Part shown: positions 425 through 17,852 of the stretch, one piece after another | Numbering within the stretch: position 1 is the first letter of the stretch | Layout of the letters: each line of letters begins with the position of its first letter | Assembly: GCA_016213825.1 (NCBI GenBank) | Contig: JACQZP010000021.1 | Coordinates: 245,109 to 269,108 of the forward strand | DNA length: 24,000 bases | Direction: 5' to 3' | Source of the DNA: Acetobacterium woodii | Lineage (GTDB): Bacteria; Bacillota; Clostridia; Eubacteriales; Eubacteriaceae | Notes under the pieces: generated by a model | What the model saw: the letters and a program-made list of their open reading frames with translations, nothing else | What the model was told of the DNA's origin: nothing | Database searches by the model: none | Position numbers and translations under genes: made by a program

Positions 425-2320
425 TTACATCAGTTTGCTGATATTTTTGGTAAAGGCCACCACATCGTCAAGCGGTAAGCCAGCAATCAGTCGGGCCTGA
501 TTATAAAGCAATTCGGTATAGAGGGCAAATTGCTCATCATCGGATTCATAGAAAGTTCTCAGTTTTTCATAAACCGGATGGTTTTTGTTGATTTCCAATA
601 CTTTTTTAGCTTTCACATCACCGCCCTGGGGCATGGTATTTAAGGTCATTTCCATTTCGATGGACAGATCCCCTTCAGTGGATAGATAAGCGACGTCATC
701 TTTTAAATGAGCGGTGGTTTTAACCTTAACGACCTCATCCCCAATGAGTTCCTTCATCTTTTCCAGCAGTTTTTCATCCACTTCCGAAGTTTCACCGGTA
801 TCGTCTTTTTCATCTTCTTCCGGCGCTTCCAGGCCCAGATTCTGGCTGGATACGGAACGGAATTCTTTTTCCTCGTATTGTCTGAGGGTCTGGGTGACAA
901 ATTCATCGATGGTTTCGGTTAAATATAAGATCTCATAGTTTTTGTTTTTGATGATCGATACCTGGGGCAATTTTTCAATCTGGCCCACTGATGATCCGGA
1001 GGCGTAATAGATGTATTTTTGATCTTCAGGCATTCGCTCAACATATTCTTTAAGGGTAACCAGTTTGCCTTCTTTGGATGAATAAAACAGTAGGAAGTCC
1101 TGAAGTTTTTCCTTGTCCTGTCCCCATTTATCATAGGTACCCACCTTGATCTGATTACCAAAGGCTTTAAAGAATTTTTCATAGTTTTCCCGATCATTTT
1201 CCTGCATTTTCTTGAGTTCTTCAGAAATTCGGGTATCGATTTTACGGCTGATCAGACGAAGCTGACGATCCTGTTGGAGCATTTCCCGGGAAATATTCAA
1301 GGAGATATCTTCCGAATCCACCACCCCTTTGACAAAGCTGAAATAATCCGGCAGCAGTTCACTGCATTTTTCCATAATCAACACGCCGTTGGAATAAAGT
1401 TCCAGTCCCTTTTCATAATCCCGGGTGTAGTAATCAAAAGGAGCCTGGCCAGGGATATAAAGAATCGCTTTGTAGCTCATCGCACCTTCAATGCTGAGGT
1501 GGACATGAGCCAGCGGTGCATCAAAACCTAAGCGTTTGTCGTGATAGAAATTGTTGTAATCTTCATCGGTGAGCTCGTTTTTGTTTTTTCGCCAGATCGG
1601 GATCATCGAGTTTAGCACATCGTCGGATAAATAGGTTTCATATTCGGGTTTGTCGCTGTCTTTGGTTTCTTCCTTAACCCGGCTGTTTTCAACCACCATT
1701 TTGATGGGATAGCGAATAAAGTTGGAGTAATGTTCCACTAAATGACGGATCCGGTGGGGTTCCAGATAGTCGTCAAAATTATTATCTTCGGAATTTTCTT
1801 TAAGATGCAAGGTGATTTTCGAGCCATGGGTTTTTCGTTCTCCCGGCTCGATGGTGTAACCATCTGCCCCTTCAGAGACCCATAAATAAGACTGCTCGTC
1901 ATCAACGGATTTCGTTTCGACGGAAACCCGGTCAGCCACCATAAAGGCCGAGTAGAAACCGACCCCAAATTGACCGATGATGTCAAAATCTTCTTCCATT
2001 TCCTGTTCGTTCTTGAAATCGCTGGAACCGCTTTTGGCAATGGTCCCAAGATTGTCTTCCAACTCAGCCGCAGTCATTCCGATTCCTGTATCTTCAATCG
2101 TCAGGGTGCGGTTATCCTTGTCAGGGTGAATCCGGATATAGTAATCATCCTTATTAAAACTTTTATCTTTGTCTGTTAATGTTTTGTAGTAAACCTTGTC
2201 AATCGCATCAGATGCATTTGAAATCAATTCCCGGAGAAATATTTCTTTGTTGGTATAAATTGAATTGATCATCAAATCCATCAGACGTTTGGATTCTGAT
2301 TTAAACTGCTTCTTTTCCAT
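425..2320 (-). CDS. htpG: Molecular chaperone HtpG (HSP90 family)
   Basis: 631-aa ORF with the N-terminal GHKL ATPase signature [14 protein letters not shown] and [11 protein letters not shown]. It is full HSP90 length. An RBS-like AGAGG lies upstream of the ATG, and CIRCE plus a promoter lie further upstream. Confidence 0.95.
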
Positions 2321-2350
2321 AACATACCTCTTCTTTAAACTTTTATAACA

Positions 2351-2377
2351 TTAGCACTCTTTTGCTTCGAGTGCTAA
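2351..2377 (-). promoter_or_regulatory. CIRCE operator (HrcA binding site)
   Basis: TTAGCACTC-TTTTGCTTC-GAGTGCTAA is an exact match to the CIRCE consensus TTAGCACTC-N9-GAGTGCTAA. It lies 31-57 nt upstream of the htpG ATG and just downstream of the -10 box. Confidence 0.9.
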
Positions 2378-2381
2378 CAAT

Positions 2382-2410
2382 ATTGTAAGGATAATTATTA
2401 TATGTGTCAA
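2382..2410 (-). promoter_or_regulatory. sigma-A promoter of htpG
   Basis: The minus strand reads TTGACA (2405-2410), 17 nt, TACAAT (2382-2387). CIRCE starts 5 nt after the -10 box. Confidence 0.7.
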
Positions 2411-2561
2411 CACTTTTAATATTTTTTTAAGTATAAAACCATTCAAATAACTCGCTATCGGTTATTACTCGCATATTTTTGAGAATAACCGAACTTCATC
2501 TACAAAAATTGCTTTTAGTTCAGTCATTCAACACGCATCAATAGCCAAATATTTCTATCAT

Positions 2562-2590
2562 TTGTCAATAATTGCCTAAGTAATTATAAT
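2562..2590 (+). promoter_or_regulatory. Candidate sigma-A promoter for the CGGC-type gene
   Basis: The plus strand reads TTGTCA (2562-2567), 17 nt, TATAAT (2585-2590), about 120 nt upstream of the ATG at 2711. Confidence 0.4.
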
Positions 2591-2710
2591 GATTTCTATA
2601 GTATAATATGCTTTGTACTGTATTTAGCACTCAAAGAAAATTTGAATGCATTTAATTTTATTGAATTATTCCCAAATTATGATAGTATATTAGCTAAAAA
2701 GGTGTTTACA

Positions 2711-3046
2711 ATGAAAAGAGTCGTCATTATCAGTTGCGACAAAATTATGGATAATTGTTCTGGAAAAGGATGTAAGCAAGCATTCAAAGAAAGACAGGAC
2801 GCTTTTTCAAATTATCCATTAACGGATGTCAAATTAATCGGATTTATCCGCTGTCGGCATTGCGACGAAACTGCTGTGTCTCGAGTTCTCAAAAAAACAG
2901 ATCATCTGCTAAAAAAAGATGTTAATGCAATCCACCTTTCAAGTTGTATCTGTTCTGTTTGTGAAAAACATGATGACTTTGTTGAAAAATTATCGAATCA
3001 ATTCATTATTGTTAAAGGTACACATCTGACCAGAAAATCCAATTAA
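2711..3046 (+). CDS. CGGC-domain-like Cys/His-rich protein (putative metal binding)
   Basis: The ORF track starts at a TTG at 2642. An ATG at 2711 has an AAGGTG RBS 6 nt upstream and gives MKRVVIISCDK.... The pattern IISC...C-x4-C...F-x-RC-x-HC...IHLSSC...C...GTH resembles the CGGC domain family, with CRHC in place of CGGC. Confidence 0.65.
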   Translation: MKRVVIISCDKIMDNCSGKGCKQAFKERQDAFSNYPLTDVKLIGFIRCRHCDETAVSRVLKKTDHLLKKDVNAIHLSSCICSVCEKHDDFVEKLSNQFIIVKGTHLTRKSN

Positions 3047-3158
3047 ACCTTTTATCTGAAAAACTCACTTTAACCCATTTTATTTCACACCACTACATTT
3101 ACATCAATGAACGGATGCGCTTATTTATGTAAAAACTATTCAGGAGGAAAAGCCAAAG

Positions 3159-4331
3159 TTGCCGAAACTATTTCAACCCAAAGAGAAAAAAGAAAAGAAA
3201 GAGAAAAAAAAGAGCAGTAAAAGTATTGAAAAAAACGAGAAATTAAAGAAAGTCACCGAAAAACTTGCTGATAACCCGGAAGTCGTTAAAATGATTCAGG
3301 AAGAAAATGAAGAGTCCAATAATAAAAAATCTAAAAAAAATGGTAAAAAGCTACCCCTAAAAATCATCATTCCAGCCGTTCTCGTCATTTTCCTCATCGG
3401 TGGTGGCGCATTTTTTGTTCTTAAAAGCGGCATGTTTTTTGGTAGTCACGCATCTGCAGAAGAAGATAATTCAGTGGACAAAGCGGCTATTTATATTCAA
3501 GCTGATACCTTTTATACGGAAGGGCATTACTATGATGCCAGTGCGCTATTTTCTTTTTTAGGAGAATATGAAGACAGCGTTGAAATGCTGACAAAAATCG
3601 ACTTAAACAGCCGGTATCCGGATAATGGAACAAAAATTACTAAATATGTTGGCAGTGATGTGATTAACAACTACATTCTCAGTTATAAAAACCATACTGA
3701 GATTACCACCGAACTTGAAAATGCCACAAAAACTACCGAAGCGCCAGCATCGGAAACGAAATCGGAGTCGAAGGAGCCATCGTCAACCACCGCAGAATCA
3801 ACTCAGCCGACAAAAAAAGCGGCACCGAATACCTCTAAAGAACTGGTCGCCTCTAATACTTCAGGAGAATCTACTTCTAGCACTGAAGAAAAAAGCACGA
3901 CCACTGAAGAGCCAGAAAAAACCCAGGAAAAAGCTGATGAAAAAGTCGAATATGATAAAGCAGTGATCGAAGCCGTTAAAGAAAAGACTCATGAAATTGT
4001 TCTCGCTGGCAATCTGGTTAAAAGCCTGAATATCCCCAGTGACAATCCCCTTTACGAAGCCCACGAAACCTTAAAACGGTCGGCTGATTATAGTAATCAA
4101 GCCGCTGAAAAAATTCTTGAAGGTGTCGAAGCGGGAACTTATAAACCAGGTGGTACCGGTGAAGTAGCTGAAGAAGTGAATACCTTGCTTGAAAATATGA
4201 ACAAGGAAACGGAACTGTTTCATAACCAGGTTAGCGATGTCATCGCCCTCAATCTCTTCGAGCTCGTTAAATGCCCTGATGCAGGCGAACTACTCAAGCG
4301 GTATTCGGAATCCTTTATTGTTTATGAATAA
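3159..4331 (+). CDS. Hypothetical single-pass membrane protein with Lys-rich N-terminus and Ser/Thr/Glu-rich linker
   Basis: 390-aa ORF with a TTG start preceded by AGGAGG (3142-3147). It has one clear hydrophobic helix (LPLKIIIPAVLVIFLIGGGAFFVL), then a low-complexity STE-rich region. I recognise no family. Confidence 0.55.
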   Translation: MPKLFQPKEKKEKKEKKKSSKSIEKNEKLKKVTEKLADNPEVVKMIQEENEESNNKKSKKNGKKLPLKIIIPAVLVIFLIGGGAFFVLKSGMFFGSHASAEEDNSVDKAAIYIQADTFYTEGHYYDASALFSFLGEYEDSVEMLTKIDLNSRYPDNGTKITKYVGSDVINNYILSYKNHTEITTELENATKTTEAPASETKSESKEPSSTTAESTQPTKKAAPNTSKELVASNTSGESTSSTEEKSTTTEEPEKTQEKADEKVEYDKAVIEAVKEKTHEIVLAGNLVKSLNIPSDNPLYEAHETLKRSADYSNQAAEKILEGVEAGTYKPGGTGEVAEEVNTLLENMNKETELFHNQVSDVIALNLFELVKCPDAGELLKRYSESFIVYE

Positions 4332-5946: not shown

Positions 5947-7200
5947 TTATTTCGTCCATTTTGAAAAATCAAGGGTTGCAAAGTAGTCGTCTGGGGTTTC
6001 AGCCCGGCGGATCAGTTCGGTGCTGCCGTCTTCTTTTAACAATACTTCGGCGGAACGCAGCTTGCCGTTGTAGTTATAGCCCATCGCAAAACCATGAGCC
6101 CCGGTATCGTGTAAGACCACCAGATCACCGATATCGATTTTAGGAAGCTTTCTATCGATGGCAAATTTGTCATTATTTTCACACAAGCCGCCGGTGACAT
6201 CATAAACATGATCAAGGGGCTCATTTTCTTTGCCCATTACGGTGATGTGATGGTAAGCACCGTACATGGCCGGTCGCATCAAGTTGGCGGCACAGGCATC
6301 CAGCCCGATGTATTCTTTATGAGTATGTTTTTCGTGAAGGGCAGTTGTGACCAGATGGCCAAATGGTCCCAGGACAAACCGACCCAGCTCTGTATAAATC
6401 GAGATATCCCCCATTCCGGCAGGCACGAGAATTTCTTCAAAGGCTTTTTGAACACCGCGACCGACTTCATAAATATCGGTGGCTTGTTGGTCTGGCAGAT
6501 AAGGAATCCCGACCCCGCCGGAAAGATTGATAAAGGCGATATGAGCGCCGGTTTCCTTATTGAGTTCAACTGCTGTTTCAAATAGAATGCGAGCCAGCGC
6601 CGGATAGTATTCGTTGGCAATGGTATTACTGGCCAGGAAGGCATGGATTCCAAAATGTTTAACCCCTTTGCCAATCAGCGTGGTAAACCCTTCGGTCATC
6701 TGCTCCCGGGTGAAGCCATATTTGGCTGTCTGAGGGGTGTCCATGATGGCATTGTCAATGACAAAATCGCCACCGGGATTGAAGCGACAGCTAATCGTTT
6801 CTGGGATGCCTGCAACTTCATCAAGAAAATCGATATGAGTGATGTCATCCAGCGTGATGATGGCGTTGAGTTTTCGGGCCAGCACAAAATCTTCTGCTGG
6901 CGTGACATTGGAGGTAAACATAATGTCATCGCCTTTAAAGCCTACCGTATCGGACATCATTAATTCAGTATAGGATGAGCAATCCACGCCGCAGCCTTCT
7001 TCTTTTAAAATCTGCAGAATGGTTGGGTTGGGCGTCGCTTTAACGGCAAAATATTCTTTATATCCTGCGTTCCAGGAAAACGCCTCCTGGAGATTTCGGA
7101 CATTTTCGCGAATGCCCTTTTCATCATAAAGATGAAAAGGCGTAGGAAATTCTTTAACAATTTCTTTTAATTTTTCTTGAGTAACAAAGGTTTTTTTCAT
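5947..7200 (-). CDS. lysA: Diaminopimelate decarboxylase family (fold-III PLP decarboxylase)
   Basis: 417-aa ORF with FAVKATP (PLP lysine context), LSGGVGIPY and GGLCENND motifs typical of the Orn/DAP/Arg decarboxylase family. Its ATG overlaps the stop of the upstream regulator gene (ATGA). The dapL neighbourhood favours LysA, but substrate is not provable from sequence. Confidence 0.75.
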   Translation of the reverse strand: MKKTFVTQEKLKEIVKEFPTPFHLYDEKGIRENVRNLQEAFSWNAGYKEYFAVKATPNPTILQILKEEGCGVDCSSYTELMMSDTVGFKGDDIMFTSNVTPAEDFVLARKLNAIITLDDITHIDFLDEVAGIPETISCRFNPGGDFVIDNAIMDTPQTAKYGFTREQMTEGFTTLIGKGVKHFGIHAFLASNTIANEYYPALARILFETAVELNKETGAHIAFINLSGGVGIPYLPDQQATDIYEVGRGVQKAFEEILVPAGMGDISIYTELGRFVLGPFGHLVTTALHEKHTHKEYIGLDACAANLMRPAMYGAYHHITVMGKENEPLDHVYDVTGGLCENNDKFAIDRKLPKIDIGDLVVLHDTGAHGFAMGYNYNGKLRSAEVLLKEDGSTELIRRAETPDDYFATLDFSKWTK

Positions 7201-7901
7201 AGATTTTTATTTCCTTTCATGATTTCAATCAGTTTAATTTCATTTTTCATCGAATCTTTAAATAAATCAACCAGGTTTTGCTTTTGAGAATAGAGACAGG
7301 TGGAATGCTCGCCGTTGTTGATATCGCCAGTAAGAACATTGGTCGAATCAGCAATCAGCCGGATCTGTTGAAGCAGCTGATCGGCAATATAAATGATGCT
7401 GCCGTCCAGACTAAAGGTTCCGTTGGTGATGATCACCATCTTGATGCCTCTATGAATAGCCTGCTCAATATCTGGAACGATTAAATCCAGAATCGGATTG
7501 GGTACTGAAATGTATACCCGCTCTTTTGCCTCCAAAATCATATTCCGTAATTTATTAAGAATGTTCACTTCCCCTTTGATGGTGATATAACCTTCCACCA
7601 ATGTCCTTTTGCTGGGAATAGTTCGGATCAGATCTGCTTTTGATTCCTGAAGTTTTCTAATTTTATTCTCACAAAATTCGTCAATCGGAACCGGTGTATA
7701 GCGGATGGTCGCCTCTTCAATTACAAAGGCACCGCCTTTTTCTACCAGCGAAGCAAGGGAGGTATAGGTATTGGATCGTGAAATCCCGGTTGCTTTGGCA
7801 ACCTCATAGCCATTTAAATCCCCGTCCGAAAGCAGGGTCAAATAAATGACGGCCTCGTGTCGGGTCAGGCCAAATTGTGTAAGTCGTTCAACGATATCCA
7901 T
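7197..7901 (-). CDS. TrmB-family transcriptional regulator
   Basis: 234-aa ORF. The N-terminal winged helix LTRHEAVIYLTLL...NGYEVAKATGISRSNTYTSLASLVEKG is typical of the TrmB family, and a C-terminal effector-like domain follows. Confidence 0.75.
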   Translation of the reverse strand: MDIVERLTQFGLTRHEAVIYLTLLSDGDLNGYEVAKATGISRSNTYTSLASLVEKGGAFVIEEATIRYTPVPIDEFCENKIRKLQESKADLIRTIPSKRTLVEGYITIKGEVNILNKLRNMILEAKERVYISVPNPILDLIVPDIEQAIHRGIKMVIITNGTFSLDGSIIYIADQLLQQIRLIADSTNVLTGDINNGEHSTCLYSQKQNLVDLFKDSMKNEIKLIEIMKGNKNL

Positions 7902-7939
7902 AAACTTCTGAGTCCTTACTTAATTAAAATTAATAACCG

Positions 7940-7989
7940 GATCTGTACAGACTGTTCTTTTGCAGATCGATTGGAATTTTCTGATCTGC
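7940..7989 (-). promoter_or_regulatory. Three GATCTG/CAGATC motifs in the 5' UTR of the TrmB-lysA-dapL operon
   Basis: Plus-strand GATCTG (7940-7945), GCAGATC (7962-7968) and GATCTGC (7983-7989). The middle copy can pair with either neighbour. The palindrome CTGTACAG lies at 7943-7950. Confidence 0.3.
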
Positions 7990-8021
7990 TTCAAAAATAA
8001 TTAGTGTTCCTGCTTAGTACT

Positions 8022-8050
8022 ACTCTACAGCAAATGGTATATTTTGTCAA
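8022..8050 (-). promoter_or_regulatory. Candidate sigma-A promoter of the TrmB-family/lysA/dapL operon
   Basis: The minus strand reads TTGACA (8045-8050), 17 nt, TAGAGT (8022-8027), about 115 nt upstream of the ATG at 7901. Confidence 0.55.
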
Positions 8051-8074
8051 GAATGATTATAAAAAATTGTTCTT

Positions 8075-8134
8075 ATATTTATTTTTGCATTTATTCTAGC
8101 ATTTATTCTAGCATTTATTTTTGCATTTATTAAC
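8075..8134. repeat. Five tandem 12-bp units (consensus GCATTTATTCTA)
   Basis: The units are ATATTTATTTTT, GCATTTATTCTA, GCATTTATTCTA, GCATTTATTTTT and GCATTTATTAAC, head to tail with no spacers. Confidence 0.9.
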
Positions 8135-8137
8135 TAA

Positions 8138-8188
8138 TAAAAAAGACCTGACTCCTAGGATAAGATTAATCATCGAAAGTGTGGTCTT
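8138..8188 (-). terminator. Weak terminator-like hairpin after azlD
   Basis: On the minus strand AAGACC pairs with GGTCTT (6 bp, about 34-nt loop) and is followed by TTTTTTATT. The large loop makes this weak. Confidence 0.3.
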
Positions 8189-8204
8189 AGCTTTGTATGT
8201 TTAG

Positions 8205-8549
8205 CTATGCGCCCATAAAAAAAGGCATCCGAATTAAAATCATGTACAGTCCGGTTCCGGCGATGATACTCAGGAAAACATTTTTTTTAAAGAACTGTAC
8301 GATCACCACGATACCAACCGCCAGAAGTTCCGGCAAACCATAGGGAAAGGCTGTGAACCCGATGTTTCGCAAACAAAATATCACCAGAATAATCATAATC
8401 GCTGCCGGTAGAACCATTCCTAGATAAGTGACTGTTTCCGGCAATGCTTTTTTGCGGCCAAAGAAAATAAATGGCAGCGCCCGTGTAAACACGGTAACCA
8501 GAACCACGACCACGATGGCCGCCAATGTATATTTCCAATCAATATTCAT
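8205..8549 (-). CDS. azlD: Branched-chain amino acid transport protein AzlD family
   Basis: 114-aa very hydrophobic ORF (about 4 TM helices), directly downstream of an AzlC-like gene. Strong RBS GAAGGAGG. Confidence 0.75.
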   Translation of the reverse strand: MNIDWKYTLAAIVVVVLVTVFTRALPFIFFGRKKALPETVTYLGMVLPAAIMIILVIFCLRNIGFTAFPYGLPELLAVGIVVIVQFFKKNVFLSIIAGTGLYMILIRMPFFMGA

Positions 8550-8583
8550 AATTGACCTCCTTCTTTCTCTGATCTATTAAACA

Positions 8584-8629
8584 CTTGCGAAAGTACTGTG
8601 CGCTTTGTGTCCAGTTTCGCACGAAACAA
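8584..8629. repeat. Hairpin repeat family 2, solo left-arm module (46 bp) in the azlC-azlD spacer
   Basis: CTTGCGAAAGTACTGTGCGCTTTGTGTCCAGTTTCGCACGAAACAA aligns with 5689-5735 and 9368-9414 and shares CAGTTTCGCACGAAACAA exactly. It begins 4 nt after the azlC stop codon. Confidence 0.7.
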
Positions 8630-8632
8630 TTG

Positions 8633-9334
8633 CTACTGATCAATCGCCATCGTCAACGTCTGGTGGATTTTTGTTTTCATCAGCACCAGTGCCAGCACAC
8701 TGACCGAAAGTGCTGGTAAGATAAACTGATTCGGCCCGAGAATAAAATAAAAAACCAGGGCACTGATCAAACCAGTGATTGCCGGCAGATGACTATCCAT
8801 CTGCTGCCATTGATTCATACAGACGGTGACAAAGAAAGCCGTGGCTGAAAATTCGATGCCAGCCAAATCAAAGGGAATCAGCTGACCAAAGAGCGCTCCG
8901 GCAACACAGCTGAAAATCCAGACCAGATGAAGAATCAGAGTAATATAAAAATCGACTTTTTTAATCTCCAAATCATTAGGATAGTTAACCGCACAGAGAA
9001 TTGAATAAACCTCATCAGTTAATGTGACCACCATGTAAGGATATTTCCAACCCATTTTTCTGAACGTGTCGATAAAGGCGATACCATAAAAAATGTGACG
9101 GGCATTAACAAAAAAAGTCATCATCGCGATGGTTCCCAGCGACGCTCCGGCAGTCAGCAGCGATACCATGACAATCTGCATCGAACCGGCATAAATGAAG
9201 ACACCGGATATAAAAGACCACCCCACCGAATAGCCAGCCTCATCCATCAGCACGCCAAAGGCAATACCGATAAACAAATATGGAAAGATAACAGGCACCA
9301 CCTGTTGCAGGGCAAAAACCAGATTTTTATTCAT
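8633..9334 (-). CDS. azlC: AzlC-family branched-chain amino acid permease/exporter subunit
   Basis: 233-aa polytopic membrane ORF paired with azlD. RBS AAGGGAG. Confidence 0.8.
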   Translation of the reverse strand: MNKNLVFALQQVVPVIFPYLFIGIAFGVLMDEAGYSVGWSFISGVFIYAGSMQIVMVSLLTAGASLGTIAMMTFFVNARHIFYGIAFIDTFRKMGWKYPYMVVTLTDEVYSILCAVNYPNDLEIKKVDFYITLILHLVWIFSCVAGALFGQLIPFDLAGIEFSATAFFVTVCMNQWQQMDSHLPAITGLISALVFYFILGPNQFILPALSVSVLALVLMKTKIHQTLTMAIDQ

Positions 9335-9367
9335 AAGATGCTCCCTTCACTAATTAAAATATTCACT

Positions 9368-9577
9368 AATTGCGACTGTATCGTGAGCTTAGTATCCAGT
9401 TTCGCACGAAACAACCAGAAGAAATCGCTACGCGAATTTCTTCTTTGTCGCGGGCAGTCGCTAACTACAAGCAAGCTTGTGATTGGCTCGTCGCCTTCGT
9501 GAATTTTTACACGTTACAAAATCGTTTGTGGAAACTGAACACTAAGCAATAACTGTACGTTATGTATTTTTGCAATC
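9368..9577. repeat. Hairpin repeat family 2, full copy c (about 210 bp) in the azlC leader
   Basis: The left arm is AATTGCGACTGTATCGTGAGCTTAGTATCCAGTTTCGCACGAAACAA (9368-9414). The right arm is CGTTTGTGGAAACTGAACACTAAGCAATAACTGTACG...TGCAAT (about 9522-9577) and is its imperfect reverse complement. The core 9415-9489 is the reverse complement of 5811-5885. Confidence 0.75.
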
Positions 9578-9615
9578 ACCTAACTAACGTTTGATTTGAG
9601 CCTCATTTTAACACG

Positions 9616-11361: not shown

Positions 11362-12477
11362 CTACACCTCGTTCAACGTCACTAATTCCTCTTCACAATC
11401 TGCAAATTTAATGGCAATTTGGCGGAATTCTTCATTTACTGCTTCGAAAGCATCAACCATCATTGGGTCAAAATGAACTCCGCGACCTTCTATTATGATT
11501 GCTACGGCGCTTCGATGGGTAAACGGCGGTTTGTAGACACGCTTACTGATCAGGGCATCGTAGACATCAGCAATGGCCATAATTCTTCCCGCAATGGGGA
11601 TCTCATCACCAGACAGACCATCTGGATAGCCAGTTCCATTCCACTTCTCCTGATGACATTTTGAAAACTCCATGGCATGTTTCAAAAAAGAATTTTCACC
11701 AAGCTTTAATGAGGCAATCCGTAGGGCATCATAGCCAATCGTGGTATGTTTTTTCATTTCCTCAAATTCTTCACAAGTCAATTTGCCAGGTTTTAGCAGA
11801 ATTTCATCGCGAATGCCGATTTTTCCAATATCGTGAAGTGGTGCTGACTTATAAAATATTTTTATGATTTCTTCGTTTAGAATATTCTGATATTTTTCGG
11901 TGGTACTGAGTTTTTCAGCCAGAATTTTGACGTAATTCTTGGTGCGGTCAATGTGTCCACCAGTGTCTGGATCCCGATATTCGGCCAGAGACGCCAGTGC
12001 TTCAATGGTAATTTCCTGGGTCAGACATAATTCCCGGGTTCGTTCTTCCACTCGTTGCTCGAGTTTTTCATTTTGGCTGGCCAATTCTTTTTTGGCAATC
12101 GTAATAAAGAGGTGCGTTTGGACCCGAGCCTTGACTTCCAGAATTTCAAATGGTTTGGTAATATAATCGACCGCTCCGGTTTCAAATCCTTTTGTTTTAC
12201 TGCCAATATCCGTCATGGCCGTCAAAAAAATAATCGGAATGTCGGCTGTTCGGGGGTCTTTTTTCAGTTTTTCACATACCTCATAACCACTCATTCCCGG
12301 CATCATGATGTCCAGCAAAATTAAATCCGGCAGTTCCATAGCGATAATTTCCAGGGCCGCTTCACCATCCATTGCCACGGTCAGATCATAGTCATCTCCC
12401 AGTGCTTCCACTAAAAGATCAATATTCATTTCGGTATCATCGACGATTAAAATGCTGCATTCTGATAATTTCTTCAT
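11362..12477 (-). CDS. Two-component response regulator, REC + HD-GYP domain (predicted c-di-GMP phosphodiesterase)
   Basis: REC motifs are present (ILIVDD, LILLDIMMPG, ITKPF), as are the HD-GYP motifs LHDIGKIG and WNGTGYPDGL followed by IADVYDAL. The track start at 12483 is a TTG. The ATG at 12477 lies 6 nt after GTGAGGT and 2 nt after the kinase stop codon, so I prefer it. Confidence 0.9.
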   Translation of the reverse strand: MKKLSECSILIVDDTEMNIDLLVEALGDDYDLTVAMDGEAALEIIAMELPDLILLDIMMPGMSGYEVCEKLKKDPRTADIPIIFLTAMTDIGSKTKGFETGAVDYITKPFEILEVKARVQTHLFITIAKKELASQNEKLEQRVEERTRELCLTQEITIEALASLAEYRDPDTGGHIDRTKNYVKILAEKLSTTEKYQNILNEEIIKIFYKSAPLHDIGKIGIRDEILLKPGKLTCEEFEEMKKHTTIGYDALRIASLKLGENSFLKHAMEFSKCHQEKWNGTGYPDGLSGDEIPIAGRIMAIADVYDALISKRVYKPPFTHRSAVAIIIEGRGVHFDPMMVDAFEAVNEEFRQIAIKFADCEEELVTLNEV

Positions 12478-12479
12478 AA

Positions 12480-15400
12480 TCAAACCTCACTTAATTTGAT
12501 TAATAAGGAATCCGCTTGTTCTTCAGCTTCCTTAAACTTATATTTGGAAACAAGTCGCATCAGTTCTGTCGCTTCAGCTTTGATTTCATTCGGCCACAAA
12601 AGCTGATGATATAATTCGAGTACCGCCGTACATTTTTTGGGCTTTCGCGTTTGAATACCTGGCAGCAGTTCTTCTAAAAAATGGACCAGTTCATCTTTCG
12701 GAGCAATCGAATTGTTTAACTCAACGCTATTGTTTTCCTCTGGCAAATACGCTTCGAGTGATTTTATCATCGATTTTAATAGAATACTCAGATTTATGAC
12801 AAGCGGTTTTAACGAATCCCTGCTTGGTTGTTCGTGTATTGCCGTTTCGAGGATCGTTGCCGCGTGTTTTATATCCATTGCCCCAATATTTCCTGATACT
12901 CCCTTTAATGTATGAACAAGTCGTTCAGCACCATTATAGTCGTCATTATTAATTGCCTGATTCAGGTCCGCAACCGTGTTCTTTTGCCCTGAAACAAATT
13001 TTCTCAGCAGATTCAGATAGGATTTTTTCTTGCCCAGAACCCGTTTCAGTCCCAGTTCTACATCCAAACCGCTGATTCTGATATCTAAATAGTCGTCTGG
13101 AAAAAGTTCACAGTTCATCTCACTGCGATCAACTGAATCCGCGACATTATTCAATGGTGGTATCCACCGGGTTAACATCTCAAAAAGATCACTCGGCTCG
13201 ATGGGCTTAGGCAAATGATCATTCATCCCGGCGGCAATACAGCGATCCCGATCTCCGGCCATGGCATTCGCTGTCATGGCGACAATGCGAAGCTCGGTAA
13301 ACCGACGGTCTGAGCGAATTTGTTTGGTCGCTTCAAGCCCGTCTAAAACAGGCATCTGCATATCCATCAAGACCAAATCATAAGCATTTTGATTAACCAT
13401 TTCTACTGCCAGCTGTCCATTGTTGGCTACATCAATCATAAAACCACCTTCTTTAAGGAGTTCAATGACAACAATTTGATTCAGCTCATTATCCTCCACC
13501 AGCAAAATTTTAGCCCCGGCAATTGCCTGCAGGTTCTTTCTCTGAATACTAACTAATCGTTGTTCACTTTCTTCAGATTCATTAATCGCATTTTTGCCAA
13601 CAATTCTCTGGGTGGTTTCATACAATACCCAAAGATTAACCGGTTTGACCATTACCAGTTCAAATCCCACTCGTTTGGCTTCAAAGAAAACTTCTTCTCT
13701 TCCAAATCCGGTTACCATCACATATTTGGGTGGATGCTTCAATTCGCTTTGATTTAACCGGGCGACGGTTTGAATCCCATTTAAATCAGGCATTTGCATG
13801 TCTATAAAAGCAATCTCATAGGGTTCATTTCGCTGATCGGCTGTTTGAATCATCTCGATGGCACTTGCACCAGAACCGGCTTCATCCACTCGCACAGCCA
13901 TGGATTTTAACATCGCCGACAGGATTAAACGGGCCTGAATATTGTCATCGACAACGAGAACATGGACGCCTTTTAACAGCTCATGTGAAATAACCGATTT
14001 TGCTGTTTTGGGCGAAATCCGAAAATGGGTCGTAAACCAAAAGATACTGCCTTTTCCATACTCGGATACCACTCCGACTTCGCCACCCATTAAGCTGGCC
14101 AGGTCTTTGGAAATAGCCAACCCCAACCCGGTACCACCATATTTTCGAGTAGTCGATGTATCGGCCTGCTGGAAGGACTGAAATAATTTTGATTTCTGAT
14201 CGGCAGTTAAGCCGATTCCGGTATCCTGAACTTCAAATCGCAGCGCGAACCCAGTGGTCGATTCCTTTTCTTTCCTGATTCGAACAATAATCTCACCCTT
14301 TTCGGTAAATTTAATTGCATTGTTAACATAATTAATCAGTATTTGTCCAATTCGTAGCGGATCGCCGCATAATTCGTTGGGAACATCCGGATGAATGTCA
14401 AAGACAAGCTCCAACCCTTTTGACAGGCATTTTTCGCTGATACAATTGGATAAATTATCGAGAACTTCATACAATTTAAAATCAATACATTCAATATCCA
14501 GTTTTCCGGCTTCAATTTTCGAAAAATCCAAAATATCATTAATAACACCCAGTAAATGTTGACCAGATTGCTGAATTTTATCAACATAGTCTTTCTGCTT
14601 TTCTGACAGATCCGTTTTTTGGATTAGATAACTCATGCCGAGGATCGCATTCATGGGGGTCCGTATCTCATGACTCATATTGGCTAAAAAATCAGATTTA
14701 GATTTAGCAGCTACTTCAGCAACTTTTTTTGCTTCAAAAAGTTCCTCTTCCATGTGCTTTCGTTGGGTGATATCCGTAGAAATACTACAAAGTCCGATAA
14801 TTTCACCATTTTGTTTCATGGGTACTTTGGTGGACAAATAGGTTTTATCAATCTTGCTTTTGATGGAATGCTCTTCGGTTATCTGAATTTCTTTTTGTCG
14901 AATCACATTGAGATCATTTTGATCATATGCTTCACCCTGACTCGAATTAAATACCGTCCTAGCGGTTTTACCAATGCAAGCCTCCCGTTTAAAACCAGTT
15001 ACATCTTCCCACTGCTTGTTAATATAAGTATATCTACCTTTTAAATCTTTTACATAGACGGCCGCCTGCAAGTTTTCGAGAACAGACTCCATAAACTCCC
15101 GGCTGTTGATCAATTCCCGATTCTTTTGTTCAATTTCCTGCATTAATTCTTCCTTGGATGGCGACTCAATTTCAGCACGTAATTCGTTAATCAGTGCGTC
15201 GCAAAATTCCGGATCAACAGACATAAATGGTAAAAAAACATTGGCCACAAATTTACCGTCTGATTTTTTAAGGATTGTCACATCATTAAAGTATCGTTCT
15301 GCAAATTCCATTTTTACCGGCGCATCAAGATTATCAAAAGCTATCGAAAGACACTTTTTATCATGGATTTCCGTAACTGCGATAATAATATTAACTTGAT

Positions 15401-15563
15401 TGTTGTCATCAAGTAACTGTCGGATGGTTTCAGACAAGGCTGCTTCAATTCGTGTTGCCCGGACTTCAGTACAGCCCAATTTGAGCGCAATCTGGCGGGC
15501 TTTTTTGCGTGCCTCGATTAATGAACTATTGCCATCAACTTTAATATGACCCAATTCGATCAT
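12480..15563 (-). CDS. Hybrid sensor histidine kinase: N-terminal RsbT/RsbW-like degenerate domain, PAS, HisKA, HATPase, REC, REC, HPt
   Basis: 1027-aa ORF. H-box MSHEIRTPMNAILG. N/G boxes NNAIKFT, DTGIGL, GGTGLGLAIS. Two receivers (VLVVDDN...FIDMQMPDLNG...VKPV and ILLVEDN...LMDMQMPVLDG...PKPI). C-terminal HPt HTLKGVSGNIGA. No predicted TM helix, so it is probably cytoplasmic. Confidence 0.9.
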   Translation of the reverse strand: MIELGHIKVDGNSSLIEARKKARQIALKLGCTEVRATRIEAALSETIRQLLDDNNQVNIIIAVTEIHDKKCLSIAFDNLDAPVKMEFAERYFNDVTILKKSDGKFVANVFLPFMSVDPEFCDALINELRAEIESPSKEELMQEIEQKNRELINSREFMESVLENLQAAVYVKDLKGRYTYINKQWEDVTGFKREACIGKTARTVFNSSQGEAYDQNDLNVIRQKEIQITEEHSIKSKIDKTYLSTKVPMKQNGEIIGLCSISTDITQRKHMEEELFEAKKVAEVAAKSKSDFLANMSHEIRTPMNAILGMSYLIQKTDLSEKQKDYVDKIQQSGQHLLGVINDILDFSKIEAGKLDIECIDFKLYEVLDNLSNCISEKCLSKGLELVFDIHPDVPNELCGDPLRIGQILINYVNNAIKFTEKGEIIVRIRKEKESTTGFALRFEVQDTGIGLTADQKSKLFQSFQQADTSTTRKYGGTGLGLAISKDLASLMGGEVGVVSEYGKGSIFWFTTHFRISPKTAKSVISHELLKGVHVLVVDDNIQARLILSAMLKSMAVRVDEAGSGASAIEMIQTADQRNEPYEIAFIDMQMPDLNGIQTVARLNQSELKHPPKYVMVTGFGREEVFFEAKRVGFELVMVKPVNLWVLYETTQRIVGKNAINESEESEQRLVSIQRKNLQAIAGAKILLVEDNELNQIVVIELLKEGGFMIDVANNGQLAVEMVNQNAYDLVLMDMQMPVLDGLEATKQIRSDRRFTELRIVAMTANAMAGDRDRCIAAGMNDHLPKPIEPSDLFEMLTRWIPPLNNVADSVDRSEMNCELFPDDYLDIRISGLDVELGLKRVLGKKKSYLNLLRKFVSGQKNTVADLNQAINNDDYNGAERLVHTLKGVSGNIGAMDIKHAATILETAIHEQPSRDSLKPLVINLSILLKSMIKSLEAYLPEENNSVELNNSIAPKDELVHFLEELLPGIQTRKPKKCTAVLELYHQLLWPNEIKAEATELMRLVSKYKFKEAEEQADSLLIKLSEV

Positions 15564-15584: not shown

Positions 15585-16172
15585 TTATTTTAGATACTTC
15601 AATGCGATACAGGACGCATCATCGGTTTTTTTTCCTAATTCATAAAGAACCCCTTTGGCAATTGATTCAGCATCTCCAGCAAATAACTGCAAATAGTCAA
15701 AGGTATTAAAATGCTCAGTAATTCCATCAGAATGAAGCAGCAGCAAATCACGCTGTGTTAACTGACATTCACTAATCACTGGATTGATGTTTCCAAATCC
15801 CAGGATACCATCCTTTGAGATCATTCTGTTTTGATTGATGCCAATAATTCTGCCCGTGATATTTCCAATGCCAGTATACAGCAGTTTTCCAGATGGGATA
15901 TCCAGACGGCACATCAGGACAACGCCACCTCTGCTGCCACGCAGGTGTTGATGAAGACCTTTGATTACATCGACCAGATGGTTTTGATAATGCGCTGCGA
16001 GATATTCTTCAGCTTTAATCGCCAGGCTTCTTGCTTTCCGGCCATGCCCGAGGATATCGATCAGACAGATAAAACAATTTTGATCATATTCTTTAACATA
16101 ACCCAGATCGCCACATTCTGATAAATCGCCCAACAAAGCACTCATTTTAATGGCATAGTCAATGTTCTTCAT
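15585..16172 (-). CDS. PP2C/SpoIIE-type serine phosphatase, RsbX-like
   Basis: 195 aa, phosphatase domain only. Motifs CLIDILGHG, LHSDGITE and DDASCIAL. It overlaps the upstream kinase gene by 14 nt and holds the position of rsbX in RsbR-S-T-X modules. Confidence 0.8.
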   Translation of the reverse strand: MKNIDYAIKMSALLGDLSECGDLGYVKEYDQNCFICLIDILGHGRKARSLAIKAEEYLAAHYQNHLVDVIKGLHQHLRGSRGGVVLMCRLDIPSGKLLYTGIGNITGRIIGINQNRMISKDGILGFGNINPVISECQLTQRDLLLLHSDGITEHFNTFDYLQLFAGDAESIAKGVLYELGKKTDDASCIALKYLK

Positions 16173-16632
16173 TGTCCACCCATTTGCGTGTCAAAACACG
16201 GGTACCTTTTTCACAAACGGATTCGATATAAAACTCATCCATAATCCGCTGGACACTGGGTAGACCCTGACCTAGACTATTCAACTGAGAACTATAATTT
16301 TCCTTAAGTGCCTGTTCAACGTCATTAATCCCCGGTCCATGATCAATTGCGAGCAACTCAATGCCACAAGACGGATGCACTTCATCCATAATAATGCTTA
16401 TTTCGATCTGACCTTCACCCGCGTACCGCAGAATGTTTGTTGATAGTTCTGACGCTGCCACGGCTATTAACACCTCATCGGTTAAATTGAATCCCGCTTT
16501 TTTAGCGATACTCCGAACCGAATAGACAACATTTTCATTGTCATGACTCAAAACGAGGTCTATTTTTTTTGATTCCAGAATCTTATTATTTTTATTGATT
16601 TCAAAGCTCAATTGATTGCGACAAATTTTCAT
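16159..16632 (-). CDS. Anti-sigma-factor-type serine kinase (GHKL), RsbT-like
   Basis: 157 aa with N-box SELSTNILRYA, G1 DHGPGI and G2 LGQGLPSV. It directly follows two STAS genes. Confidence 0.85.
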   Translation of the reverse strand: MKICRNQLSFEINKNNKILESKKIDLVLSHDNENVVYSVRSIAKKAGFNLTDEVLIAVAASELSTNILRYAGEGQIEISIIMDEVHPSCGIELLAIDHGPGINDVEQALKENYSSQLNSLGQGLPSVQRIMDEFYIESVCEKGTRVLTRKWVDNEEH

Positions 16633-16648: not shown

Positions 16649-17017
16649 TTACCGTTTGCTTTTGTGGAGCAAGGCCAAACCATTCTCTAAATTTATTGCT
16701 ATTTTTATTTTGGGATTAATGACAACATCTAAATCAATGAGTCCAAACACGACGCCCGGCCGTAATCCGACCCAAATTGTCTGAATTCCCATCAGTGCAA
16801 AAACATTTGTGATCCGTTCAAAAGCCTGATAGGTATAGGTATCGATCACAGTAACCATGGAAAAATTGAGGATTATGCCGTTGATGTTGGTCTGATAGGC
16901 TTTCTCAGTAATCATTTTTTCGATATTCACAATACTTTCATTGGTCATTTCAGCCGGAAGTGCCACGATAAAGCTGTTCTCGATAACGGTTATGGCAGTA
17001 CGATAATCTGCTTCCAT
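16649..17017 (-). CDS. STAS-domain protein, RsbS-like
   Basis: 122 aa, a single STAS domain. The conserved D-[ST] phospho-acceptor position reads VIDT. The size and position match RsbS. Confidence 0.85.
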   Translation of the reverse strand: MEADYRTAITVIENSFIVALPAEMTNESIVNIEKMITEKAYQTNINGIILNFSMVTVIDTYTYQAFERITNVFALMGIQTIWVGLRPGVVFGLIDLDVVINPKIKIAINLENGLALLHKSKR

Positions 17018-17051: not shown

Positions 17052-17852
17052 TCACGATTTTTTCACCTTTACTTCCAGATTTAACATTTGAAACGCTTCA
17101 GTTAATGCGTCGCTGAGTGTCGCCCGAGTATTGATTGCTTCCATATCGATGCCTAACTGGATGATCGTTTGCGCCACCGCTGGCGAAATTCCTGAAAGGA
17201 TGCAATCACAACCCATCAATTTAGTCGCTTTTGTTATTTTAATCAAGTGGTTGGCAACCGCCGTATCCACGGCCGCTACACCATGTATATCCAGAATGAT
17301 AACTTTCGCATAGGTTTCGGCAATTTTGGTCAGCATGCTTTCCATCATGTGTTGCGCTCTCATTGAATCAACCACCCCTACAATTGGCAAAACCATGACC
17401 CCTTCCCACAGTTTAATCGTTGGCGTTGACATTTCTCTGATTGTATGACTTTGTTCTTTTAACCGGTTTTCATATAAAACACGTTCGGTAATGTCCAGAA
17501 CAAATTCAAGACCTCCGATTATTTCTCCGGCTTCATCAAGCAGAGGAACCGCAGAAAATTCCAAGGGCAGTGTTTGTTCACCGATACTTGCCACAGTTCG
17601 GGATGAATGGGTTTTTCCGGCTCTCATCGCTTTTAACATGGCGCAATCATCGGTTCCGCACTGATCAGTACAGATTAAATCTTTACAGGGGATGCCAAGA
17701 ATCTCATCTCCTGATTTTCTAAGCATCTTTTTCCCGGCCTCATTGATATAGGTCACGATCAAATCTTTATTGACGGCCATCACGGGTGCTGGAATTTGGT
17801 CAAGAATCTGAGCTTTTAATTTGTCATCTGCTTCCTGGAAATTTTTGTTCAT
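17052..17852 (-). CDS. RsbR-like stressosome sensor: N-terminal PAS (four Cys) + C-terminal STAS
   Basis: 266 aa. The PAS-like N-domain runs from QILDQIPAPVMAV to VLDITER. The C-terminal STAS domain has AVDT at the phospho-acceptor position and the GISPAVAQT motif typical of RsbR/RsbS. Strong AGGAGG RBS. Confidence 0.85.
   Translation of the reverse strand: MNKNFQEADDKLKAQILDQIPAPVMAVNKDLIVTYINEAGKKMLRKSGDEILGIPCKDLICTDQCGTDDCAMLKAMRAGKTHSSRTVASIGEQTLPLEFSAVPLLDEAGEIIGGLEFVLDITERVLYENRLKEQSHTIREMSTPTIKLWEGVMVLPIVGVVDSMRAQHMMESMLTKIAETYAKVIILDIHGVAAVDTAVANHLIKITKATKLMGCDCILSGISPAVAQTIIQLGIDMEAINTRATLSDALTEAFQMLNLEVKVKKS

Follow-up and report, generated by a model that had tools for sequence, protein, structure and literature searches.

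Gene content of the locus

We analyzed a 24,000-nucleotide stretch of an Acetobacterium woodii genome (assembly GCA_016213825.1, contig JACQZP010000021.1, positions 245,109 to 269,108 of the forward strand), here called the window, in which six adjacent genes on the minus strand make up an operon-like block: rsbR, rsbS, rsbT, rsbX, a hybrid histidine kinase and a regulator combining a receiver (REC) with an HD-GYP domain. The element under study is the N-terminal domain of the hybrid kinase (residues 1 to 115, hereafter the N-domain), described in the original prediction as a degenerate RsbT/RsbW-like pseudo-kinase domain that might dock to the stressosome. The best reading of our results is that it represents an undescribed output-coupling module of stressosome systems. 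The genes of the block, in window coordinates, are the following:

17052..17852, minus strand: RsbR-like PAS-STAS sensor, 266 amino acids (Pfam PAS_4, E 3.2e-17; STAS, E 1.6e-16)
16649..17017, minus strand: RsbS-like single STAS protein, 122 amino acids (Pfam STAS, E 2.3e-8)
16159..16632, minus strand: predicted RsbT-like serine kinase, 157 amino acids (Pfam HATPase_c_2, E 6.1e-9; alignment A5)
15585..16172, minus strand: RsbX-like PP2C phosphatase, 195 amino acids (Pfam SpoIIE, E 5.5e-9)
12480..15563, minus strand: hybrid histidine kinase, 1027 amino acids (open reading frame; starts MIELGHIKVDGNSSLIEARKKARQIALKLGCTEVRATRIEAALSETIRQLL)
11362..12483, minus strand: REC-HD-GYP response regulator, 373 amino acids (Pfam Response_reg, E 2.6e-26; HD_5, E 2.7e-27)

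By its Pfam domains, the block is of the RSTX type, with rsbR, rsbS, rsbT and rsbX contiguous and the genes of a sensor kinase and a response regulator after them, and the same gene order recurs in a Marinisporobacter locus (L001) and 17 other genome loci. A GAGGT Shine-Dalgarno sequence lies 8 nucleotides upstream from the kinase ATG, 21 nucleotides separate the kinase from the stop codon of the RsbX-like gene, and the start of the regulator gene overlaps the kinase stop codon. This regulator is likely the final output of the operon, via hydrolysis of cyclic di-GMP (c-di-GMP). The nearest relatives of the hybrid kinase are Acetobacterium proteins. The genome (99% complete) contains one N-domain and one RsbT-like gene, and no match to RsbU_N (PF08673) was found anywhere in it, while the positive control, B. 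subtilis, does match. The kinase itself is organized as follows:

15219..15563, minus strand: pseudo-RsbT N-domain, residues 1 to 115 (hhalign to RsbT, AlphaFold2, Foldseek)
15093..15218, minus strand: conserved linker, residues 116 to 157 (residue conservation in 151 N-domains; AlphaFold2 secondary structure)
14757..15098, minus strand: PAS domain, residues 156 to 269 (Pfam PAS_4, E 2.9e-18)
14505..14702, minus strand: HisKA phospho-acceptor and dimerization domain, residues 288 to 353 (Pfam HisKA, E 5.9e-23)
14025..14366, minus strand: the kinase's own catalytic HATPase_c, residues 400 to 513 (Pfam HATPase_c, E 1.3e-26)
12480..14024, minus strand: two receiver domains and an Hpt domain (REC2, 686 to 797; Hpt, 852 to 937), then the stop codon (Pfam Response_reg, two stretches, E 3.2e-44; Hpt, E 7.4e-13)

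The start of the open reading frame and the position of residues 1 to 115 at 15219 to 15563 had been predicted exactly. Scans against Pfam (2025) and NCBIfam (2026) gave no family on residues 1 to 155 of the kinase, so that its annotation begins at residue 156. In the AlphaFold2 (AF2) model, the N-domain consists of strand beta1 (2 to 9), helices alpha1 (12 to 28) and alpha2 (33 to 53) and four further strands (57 to 66, 69 to 79, 94 to 99 and 105 to 112). The predicted linker comprises a helix (122 to 133), then an S136-x-x-E139 capping box and a signaling helix (137 to 156, motif SR.EL..E...KN.EL) that enters the PAS domain. It is well conserved among the 151 N-domains compared, with S or T at position 136 in 147, E139 in 132, L140 in 146 and N148 in 111. 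In relatives without a PAS domain (P0010), the linker helix continues directly into the H-box of the dimerization and histidine phosphotransfer (DHp) region.

The S/T-x-x-E-L motif of the linker (window positions 15144 to 15158, minus strand; kinase residues 136 to 140) is nearly invariant across the family. Going by the model, S136-x-x-E139 reads as a textbook helix capping box at the start of the predicted helix 137 to 156, and a role as a phosphorylation site could also be considered. We did not retain S136 as a phosphorylation site, as the capping box accounts equally well for its conservation.

Relationship of the N-domain to RsbT

A by-eye alignment had paired residues 1 to 115 with the neighboring RsbT-like protein. 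In pairwise comparison this similarity is at chance level (BLASTP, E = 24), though BLASTP paired the same segments. Searches of PDB sequences with the N-domain (phmmer and profile hmmsearch) returned only noise, and Pfam HATPase_c_2 matched neither residues 1 to 157 nor any of ten diverse family members at E<=1. The relationship does hold at the profile level: hhalign of a profile built from 56 diverse N-domains (A4) against 20 RsbT kinases gave a probability of 98.5% and an E value of 1.7e-15 over 110 columns, running from residue 5 to 114 of the N-domain and from position 10 to 138 of the RsbT profile (residues 5 to 133 of the reference RsbT). The sole gap is a 19-residue deletion in the N-domain, from the G1 strand (DxGPGI) across the ATP lid to the G2 box. 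Within this alignment, the S-E of RsbT is matched by S44-E45, its Mg-binding Asn by Q49 and its DxGPGI strand by F76-DNLDA.

Searches of whole genomes with A4 indicated which of the anti-sigma-type kinases is the relative. Among 401 genomes of the phylum of the window, full-length relatives appeared in only 2. In 39 genomes that lack the domain, the single match at E<=1e-5 was a protein of ca. 135 amino acids (E 1e-6 to 1e-11), and all 39 of these proteins proved on inspection to be canonical RsbT, e.g., MKDQSCVKILTEWDIVAARQLGRNVAKELGFGTVDQARITTAISELARN. Five genomes encode all three kinases, and there RsbT scored 38 to 45 bits, SpoIIAB 7 to 12 and RsbW 2 to 5. The predicted "RsbT/RsbW-like" character consequently holds for RsbT but not for RsbW, of which the domain is not a homologue.

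Structure prediction gave a consistent picture. A single-sequence AF2 model, with a predicted local distance difference test (pLDDT) score of 72, has the topology beta-alpha-alpha-beta-beta-(alpha)-beta-beta, and its first 19 Foldseek matches in the PDB were all RsbW, SpoIIAB, UsfX or SiaB. A second model, from a 51-sequence alignment (pLDDT of 82.7 and predicted template modeling [pTM] score of 0.72), gave RsbW, SpoIIAB or UsfX as its top 18 matches (E 1e-5 to 6e-3, target-normalized TM score of <=0.78). The Foldseek probability for the RsbW/SpoIIAB/UsfX matches was 1.00 with both models. Profile and structure searches thus place the domain among the GHKL anti-sigma kinases, in the RsbT/RsbW/SpoIIAB fold, rather than in an unrelated one, as had been predicted. 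In terms of the RsbT/anti-sigma-kinase group, the domain has the Bergerat-type fold and profile homology and falls below the curated Pfam and NCBIfam thresholds. Because profile, fold and within-genome score evidence agree, we regard the domain as related to RsbT specifically, as opposed to GHKL proteins in general.

Loss of the catalytic motifs and conservation of one face

Residue numbering from the N terminus is identical in the N-domain and RsbT, which allows direct comparison of positions. The predicted replacement of the catalytic Asn by Gln (Q49 in the window) and the degenerate G1 box (FDNLDA in place of DxGPGI) were both recovered by hhalign, and the G2 region reported as missing lies within the 19-residue deletion together with the ATP lid. 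None of this is peculiar to the window. Across the 151 N-domains, position 49 is variable (Q 20, I 20, L 18, S 17, A 12, and others), against N in 99/99 RsbT kinases, and positions 77 to 82 are unconserved. The Asn of the Mg-ATP N-box, G1, G2 and the lid that define an RsbT kinase are thus absent or unconserved family-wide, and the label "pseudo-kinase" is justified at the sequence level. Since the Asn and G1 are lost and the lid and G2 are deleted, ATP-dependent catalysis by the N-domain would not be expected.

Other positions are strongly retained: R19 in 148 of the 151 N-domains, K21 in 141, R38 in 141, S44 in 143, E45 in 122 and R48 in 127. The family also has its own, nearly invariant N terminus, MIELG. 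Residues 1 to 115 are, therefore, almost certainly an RsbT homologue without lid, G1/G2 or Mg-binding Asn, and hence no ATP-dependent kinase, in which the alpha1/alpha2 face (R19, K21, R23, R38, S44, E45 and R48) has been kept. As such, the N-domain provides a clean case of a pseudo-kinase arising from duplication, fusion and division of labor.

Family size, distribution and genomic context

When 1.84 billion representative proteins were searched with a profile, 481 clusters (at 50% identity) were recovered with E<=1e-3, 258 of them with E<=1e-10, a considerable size for a family that is missing from Pfam and NCBIfam. The N-domain begins at residue 1 in nearly all 481 clusters. Among the best 149 representatives it is fused to HisKA in 106, REC in 56 and Hpt in 38, and further partners among the representatives are PP2C (SpoIIE), class III nucleotide cyclase, GGDEF, EAL and HD-GYP domains. 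The N-domain itself is left without a Pfam model in all of these proteins. Carriers are rare, with 2/401, 2/401 and 6/301 genomes in samples of three phyla.

The locus sets were retrieved with two subfamily alignments, and each set is biased toward one subfamily; this bias was offset by profile searches of ca. 1,100 genomes from the three phyla and by fetching flanking sequence. In all of the named loci with enough flank (12/12), the N-domain gene lies directly downstream from STAS-STAS-RsbT-(PP2C) genes and on the same strand. These 12 come from Nitrospira, Atribacterota, Desulfobacterales, Dehalococcoidia, a gammaproteobacterial metagenome-assembled genome (MAG) and an archaeal MAG of the Methanomicrobia, and include the window, a Marinisporobacter MAG and another Bacillota genome; a thirteenth named locus has a very short flank that ends in a PP2C fragment. 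Independent profile matches in the Pseudomonadota and Desulfobacterota samples showed the same arrangement in 6/6 cases, so that, for genome loci combined, the N-domain directly follows rsbR-S-T-(X) in 18/18 with enough flank. The pattern extends to 79 metagenomic contigs of a marine-sediment subfamily, where, flank permitting, PP2C was present in 72/73, RsbT in 56/56 and STAS in 46/46. PP2C is missing only from a contig of 1.8 kb (L078), where the output gene comes after the cassette without a phosphatase gene in between. In the marine-sediment loci (L058 to L137), an RsbR-like gene (380 to 432 amino acids, C-terminal STAS) is divergent from rsbS-T-X and the output gene instead of heading the operon. 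Two N-domain loci occur in a single Sediminicultor MAG, and both come with an RsbS and an RsbT of their own.

The original prediction had raised the question of whether the domain is confined to kinases beside RsbRST modules, and an occurrence mostly in genomes without such modules would have spoken against it. Of the loci open to checking, essentially all had RsbRST genes adjacent to the domain, which upholds the association. The domain is not restricted to kinases, as PP2C phosphatases and nucleotide cyclases can carry it at their N terminus as well. The family is rare yet phylogenetically widespread and tightly tied to its own RsbRST cassette.

The co-encoded RsbT kinases

To characterize the RsbT proteins encoded next to the N-domain, we compared canonical RsbT from genomes without the domain (n = 27), domain-adjacent RsbT (n = 72, of which 12 diverse and 60 metagenomic) and the N-domains (n = 151) at four positions:

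Position 19: canonical RsbT, R in 27/27; adjacent RsbT, R in <=2/72 (T, V, I, S or A); N-domain, R in 148/151
Position 21: canonical RsbT, hydrophobic; adjacent RsbT, E in 68/72 (not in the clade of the window); N-domain, K in 141/151
Position 38: canonical RsbT, R or K in 26/27; adjacent RsbT, M, I or L; N-domain, R in 141/151
Position 49: canonical RsbT, N in 27/27; adjacent RsbT, N in 72/72; N-domain, variable

The free kinase and the fused domain thus appear reciprocal. Judged by these residues, the arrangement reads as a division of labor in which the free RsbT paralogue would carry out catalysis and the fused, dead copy would keep the partner-switching face. In RsbT of B. subtilis, R19, R23 and N24 have been implicated in binding of the partner RsbU (Hardwick 2007, as cited in PMC12143880). 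The RsbT-like kinase of the window follows the pattern, with an alpha1 that lacks the DIVxARQ motif and R19, and with N49, G1 and G2 intact. It also has ca. 25 extra N-terminal residues (MKICRNQLSFEINKNNKILESKK), and its Marinisporobacter homologue (L001) shares both this extension and the altered alpha1.

Co-encoded paralogues carry opposite charges at position 21 of alpha1, E in RsbT and K in the N-domain (alignments A4 and A5). The clade of the window itself lacks this E21/K21 pairing, as its RsbT has S21 (window) or I21 (L001). We therefore discarded the pairing as proof of contact and keep it only as a lead.

A maximum-likelihood tree of N-domains, RsbT, SpoIIAB and RsbW recovered the N-domains as one clade (100/100) and the associated RsbT as another (98/89), apart from the RsbT of a Bacillota genome (L020). 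Branches are long and the outgroup is nested inside RsbT, so that the tree does not place the origin of the N-domain. The Bacillota genome just mentioned contains an RsbT-PP2C fusion beside a weakly matching N-domain kinase.

One proteobacterial operon (L139, G635:C3:699000-712000; open reading frames 6155 to 6703, 6706 to 7710 and 7581 to 9605) encodes three RsbT domains that are all equipped for catalysis: a free one, one joined to PP2C and one joined to HisKA-HATPase_c-REC. They have N49, G1 and G2 and reach the HATPase_c_2 threshold. This operon looks like the undegenerate counterpart of the architecture in the window. The joining of RsbT-type domains to the outputs of stressosomes is thus a wider phenomenon, and the domain described here is its degenerate form.

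Comparison with known systems

With RsbT of B. subtilis and its relatives (HATPase_c_2), the N-domain shares homology over the full length, residue numbering (R19, R38, S44, E45 and R48), topology and the context of a stressosome operon. It differs in lacking the 19-residue lid and G2 segment and Asn49, in its degenerate G1, in its own MIELG N terminus and in being fused to the output by a helical linker. The intact fused RsbT domains (the free RsbT, RsbT-PP2C and RsbT-HisKA-HATPase_c-REC of L139 and the RsbT-PP2C of L020) are similar as N-terminal RsbT-type domains on phosphatases or kinases of stressosome operons. Unlike the domain of the window, which is degenerate and belongs to a separate monophyletic family, they keep N49, G1, G2 and the lid and pass HATPase_c_2. 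The best structural matches of the N-domain model are SpoIIAB, RsbW and UsfX (PDB 1TH8, 1L0O, 6M36, 6M37, 8IH8 and 8JZT), with the alpha1 Arg corresponding to SpoIIAB R20. The sequence relation to them is far weaker (2 to 12 against 38 to 45 bits for RsbT), there is no sigma factor in the operon, and the N-domain is not a free dimeric protein.

RsbU_N (PF08673), found in RsbU, Moorella MtG and some proteobacterial histidine kinases, resembles the N-domain in its N-terminal place, its coiled-coil linker, its PP2C, GGDEF, cyclase or histidine kinase outputs and its position downstream from rsbRST. The folds are unrelated, as RsbU_N is all-helical and the N-domain is predicted to be a GHKL alpha/beta sandwich, and there is no sequence match between them. 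The N-domain accordingly has the location of RsbU_N, after rsbRST and ahead of a linker and a variable output, but neither the PF08673 match nor the helical fold.

The operon type itself, which combines RSTX with a two-component system plus an enzyme of c-di-GMP turnover, has been described in Vibrio (PMC9237108, PMC4976288). The RSTX modules of Vibrio vulnificus and V. brasiliensis, with VvD1/VvD2, have in common with the window an RsbX after RsbT, a PAS sensor kinase and a c-di-GMP-related regulator, no sigma factor and no RsbU_N detected in the output protein. The RsbR sensor is a PAS domain in the window and a heme-globin in Vibrio, and the Vibrio papers describe no pseudo-RsbT domain. Matches to the N-domain include no Vibrio protein, a result that does not settle whether VvD1 (VV2_0077) bears the domain. 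According to Heinz et al. (2022; PMC9237108), most proteins downstream from RSTX modules lack RsbU_N; in the same work, a two-hybrid assay showed no interaction between VvRsbT and VvD1, and the coupling of stressosome to output was left open. Full-text searches of the literature brought up no account of stressosome output proteins that begin with an RsbT-derived domain.

A possible link between the stressosome and its output

Because the genomic context supports it strongly, we consider that the N-domain is very probably the input module by which the upstream RsbR-RsbS-RsbT-RsbX system controls the kinase, in the role that RsbU_N plays in Bacillus. As for the mechanism, we infer that the kinase may well dock via its pseudo-RsbT domain on the STAS scaffold of RsbR/RsbS, to which we would give nearly an even chance. 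The kinase dimer would be held on this scaffold by the pseudo-RsbT domain, as RsbT is in Bacillus. Phosphorylation of the STAS proteins by the catalytically intact, co-encoded RsbT would then release the domain, and the RsbX-like PP2C would reset the system. The release signal would travel along the capping-box/coiled-coil linker and the PAS domain, reach the DHp helices and change autophosphorylation; the phosphoryl group would pass via REC-REC-Hpt to the REC-HD-GYP regulator, altering c-di-GMP hydrolysis.

Of the two models in the original prediction, binding to STAS domains and heterodimerization with RsbT, the evidence leans toward the first, without being decisive. We favor docking on STAS proteins over binding of free RsbT because STAS is the ancestral partner of the fold and of its alpha1 Arg. 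In SpoIIAB the equivalent residue is R20, on which both sigma F and the STAS protein SpoIIAA dock. Docking is also favored because the associated RsbT has lost the output-binding residue R19, because the reset phosphatase of sister operons (L139 and L020) bears an RsbT domain, which makes sense if that domain targets PP2C to the STAS scaffold, and because the VvRsbT-VvD1 interaction was not found (PMC9237108). Several points weigh against it. Both the N-domains and their RsbT partners are monophyletic, so the reciprocal residue pattern is one inherited state and not repeated independent evidence. In complexes of the SpoIIAB type, the STAS protein is contacted in part through the ATP lid, which the N-domain has lost. 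The adjacent RsbT must still reach the STAS phosphorylation sites without R19, which is thus not obviously needed for STAS contact. The N-domain sits exactly where RsbU_N, the binder of free RsbT, sits, an analogy that would favor RsbT as its partner. Finally, VvD1 may not carry the N-domain, in which case the negative two-hybrid result may not apply.

The main rival, that the N-domain is itself a receiver for RsbT, analogous to RsbU_N, seems to us less likely than docking. RsbT set free by the stressosome would pair with the pseudo-RsbT domain, perhaps in a pseudo-dimer resembling the RsbW/SpoIIAB homodimers, stiffen the coiled-coil linker and switch the kinase. The N-terminal position, helical linker, range of outputs (histidine kinase, PP2C, cyclase and GGDEF) and genomic place are all those of RsbU_N, for which the RsbU mechanism and the idea of a toolkit of exchangeable N-terminal modules acting via coiled-coil linkers have been put forward (PMC12143880). 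Besides, the genome of the window offers RsbT no RsbU_N partner, and the opposite charges at position 21 (K in 141/151 N-domains and E in 68/72 associated RsbT) would suit a direct contact. However, that pairing is missing precisely in the clade of the window, the associated RsbT lacks R19, the residue by which RsbT binds its output partner, and the one relevant interaction assay was negative, with the proviso on VvD1 given above. The intact RsbT-PP2C fusions suggest targeting to the STAS scaffold and not RsbT-RsbT pairing.

It is improbable that the N-domain is a passive element that merely dimerizes or stabilizes the kinase, or offers a phosphorylation site (e.g., S/T136) to RsbT, with control through transient phosphorylation, as Heinz et al. 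proposed, instead of stable binding. SpoIIAB, RsbW and histidine kinases are indeed all dimers, and position 136 is S or T in 147/151 N-domains, but the capping box explains this conservation without phosphorylation. The near-invariant, exposed basic residues R19, K21 and R38 and the MIELG N terminus point to a specific partner surface, and the strict one-to-one linkage with RsbRST, seen for instance in the two self-contained loci of the Sediminicultor MAG, argues for a specific interaction. That the likeness to RsbT is superficial, the domain being an unrelated alpha/beta fold or a still active nucleotide-binding GHKL domain, is hardly credible. The BLASTP value, the empty PDB sequence searches and the ten members missed by HATPase_c_2 would fit an unrelated fold, but they are outweighed by the full-length hhalign match, by RsbT being the specific best match of the profile in 39 genomes and by the agreement of two AF2 models on one Foldseek family, while an active domain is contradicted by the state of the Asn, G1, G2 and lid.

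Returning to docking on the STAS scaffold, we tentatively propose, as a possibility somewhat short of even, that RSTX stressosomes, a widespread type with neither sigma B nor RsbU, reach their outputs in another way than in Bacillus and use a split RsbT. The free copy would be catalytic, each output enzyme (kinase, phosphatase or cyclase) would carry a dead, lid-less copy, and the STAS scaffold would capture and release the output enzyme. Stressosomes span many phyla, and the path from stressosome to output is understood only for the Bacillus route from RsbT to RsbU_N; the N-domain may be the missing link between RSTX stressosomes and outputs other than sigma-factor phosphatases. If true, the split-RsbT principle would answer the question raised by Heinz et al. 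(2022) of how stressosomes lacking RsbU_N signal. R19, K21, R38, MIELG and the capping-box linker provide handles that can be mutated to study RSTX signaling to two-component, c-di-GMP and cyclase outputs.

Unusual members of the family

Some members of the family depart from the common organization. A representative protein of 552 amino acids (P0017) has two tandem pseudo-RsbT domains, at residues 1 to 132 and 131 to 274. In an Atribacteria MAG (L056, 2024 to 3404), the N-domain gene is broken up into two frames that overlap (2024 to 2311 and 2196 to 3404), by either a frameshift or an assembly error. The Methanomicrobia archaeon MAG (L051, JAUVXU010000004.1, 7728 to 11221) contains a full RsbR-RsbS-RsbT-RsbX cassette and an N-domain histidine kinase on a 127-kb contig, so that either archaea acquired these genes by horizontal transfer or the contig was binned wrongly.

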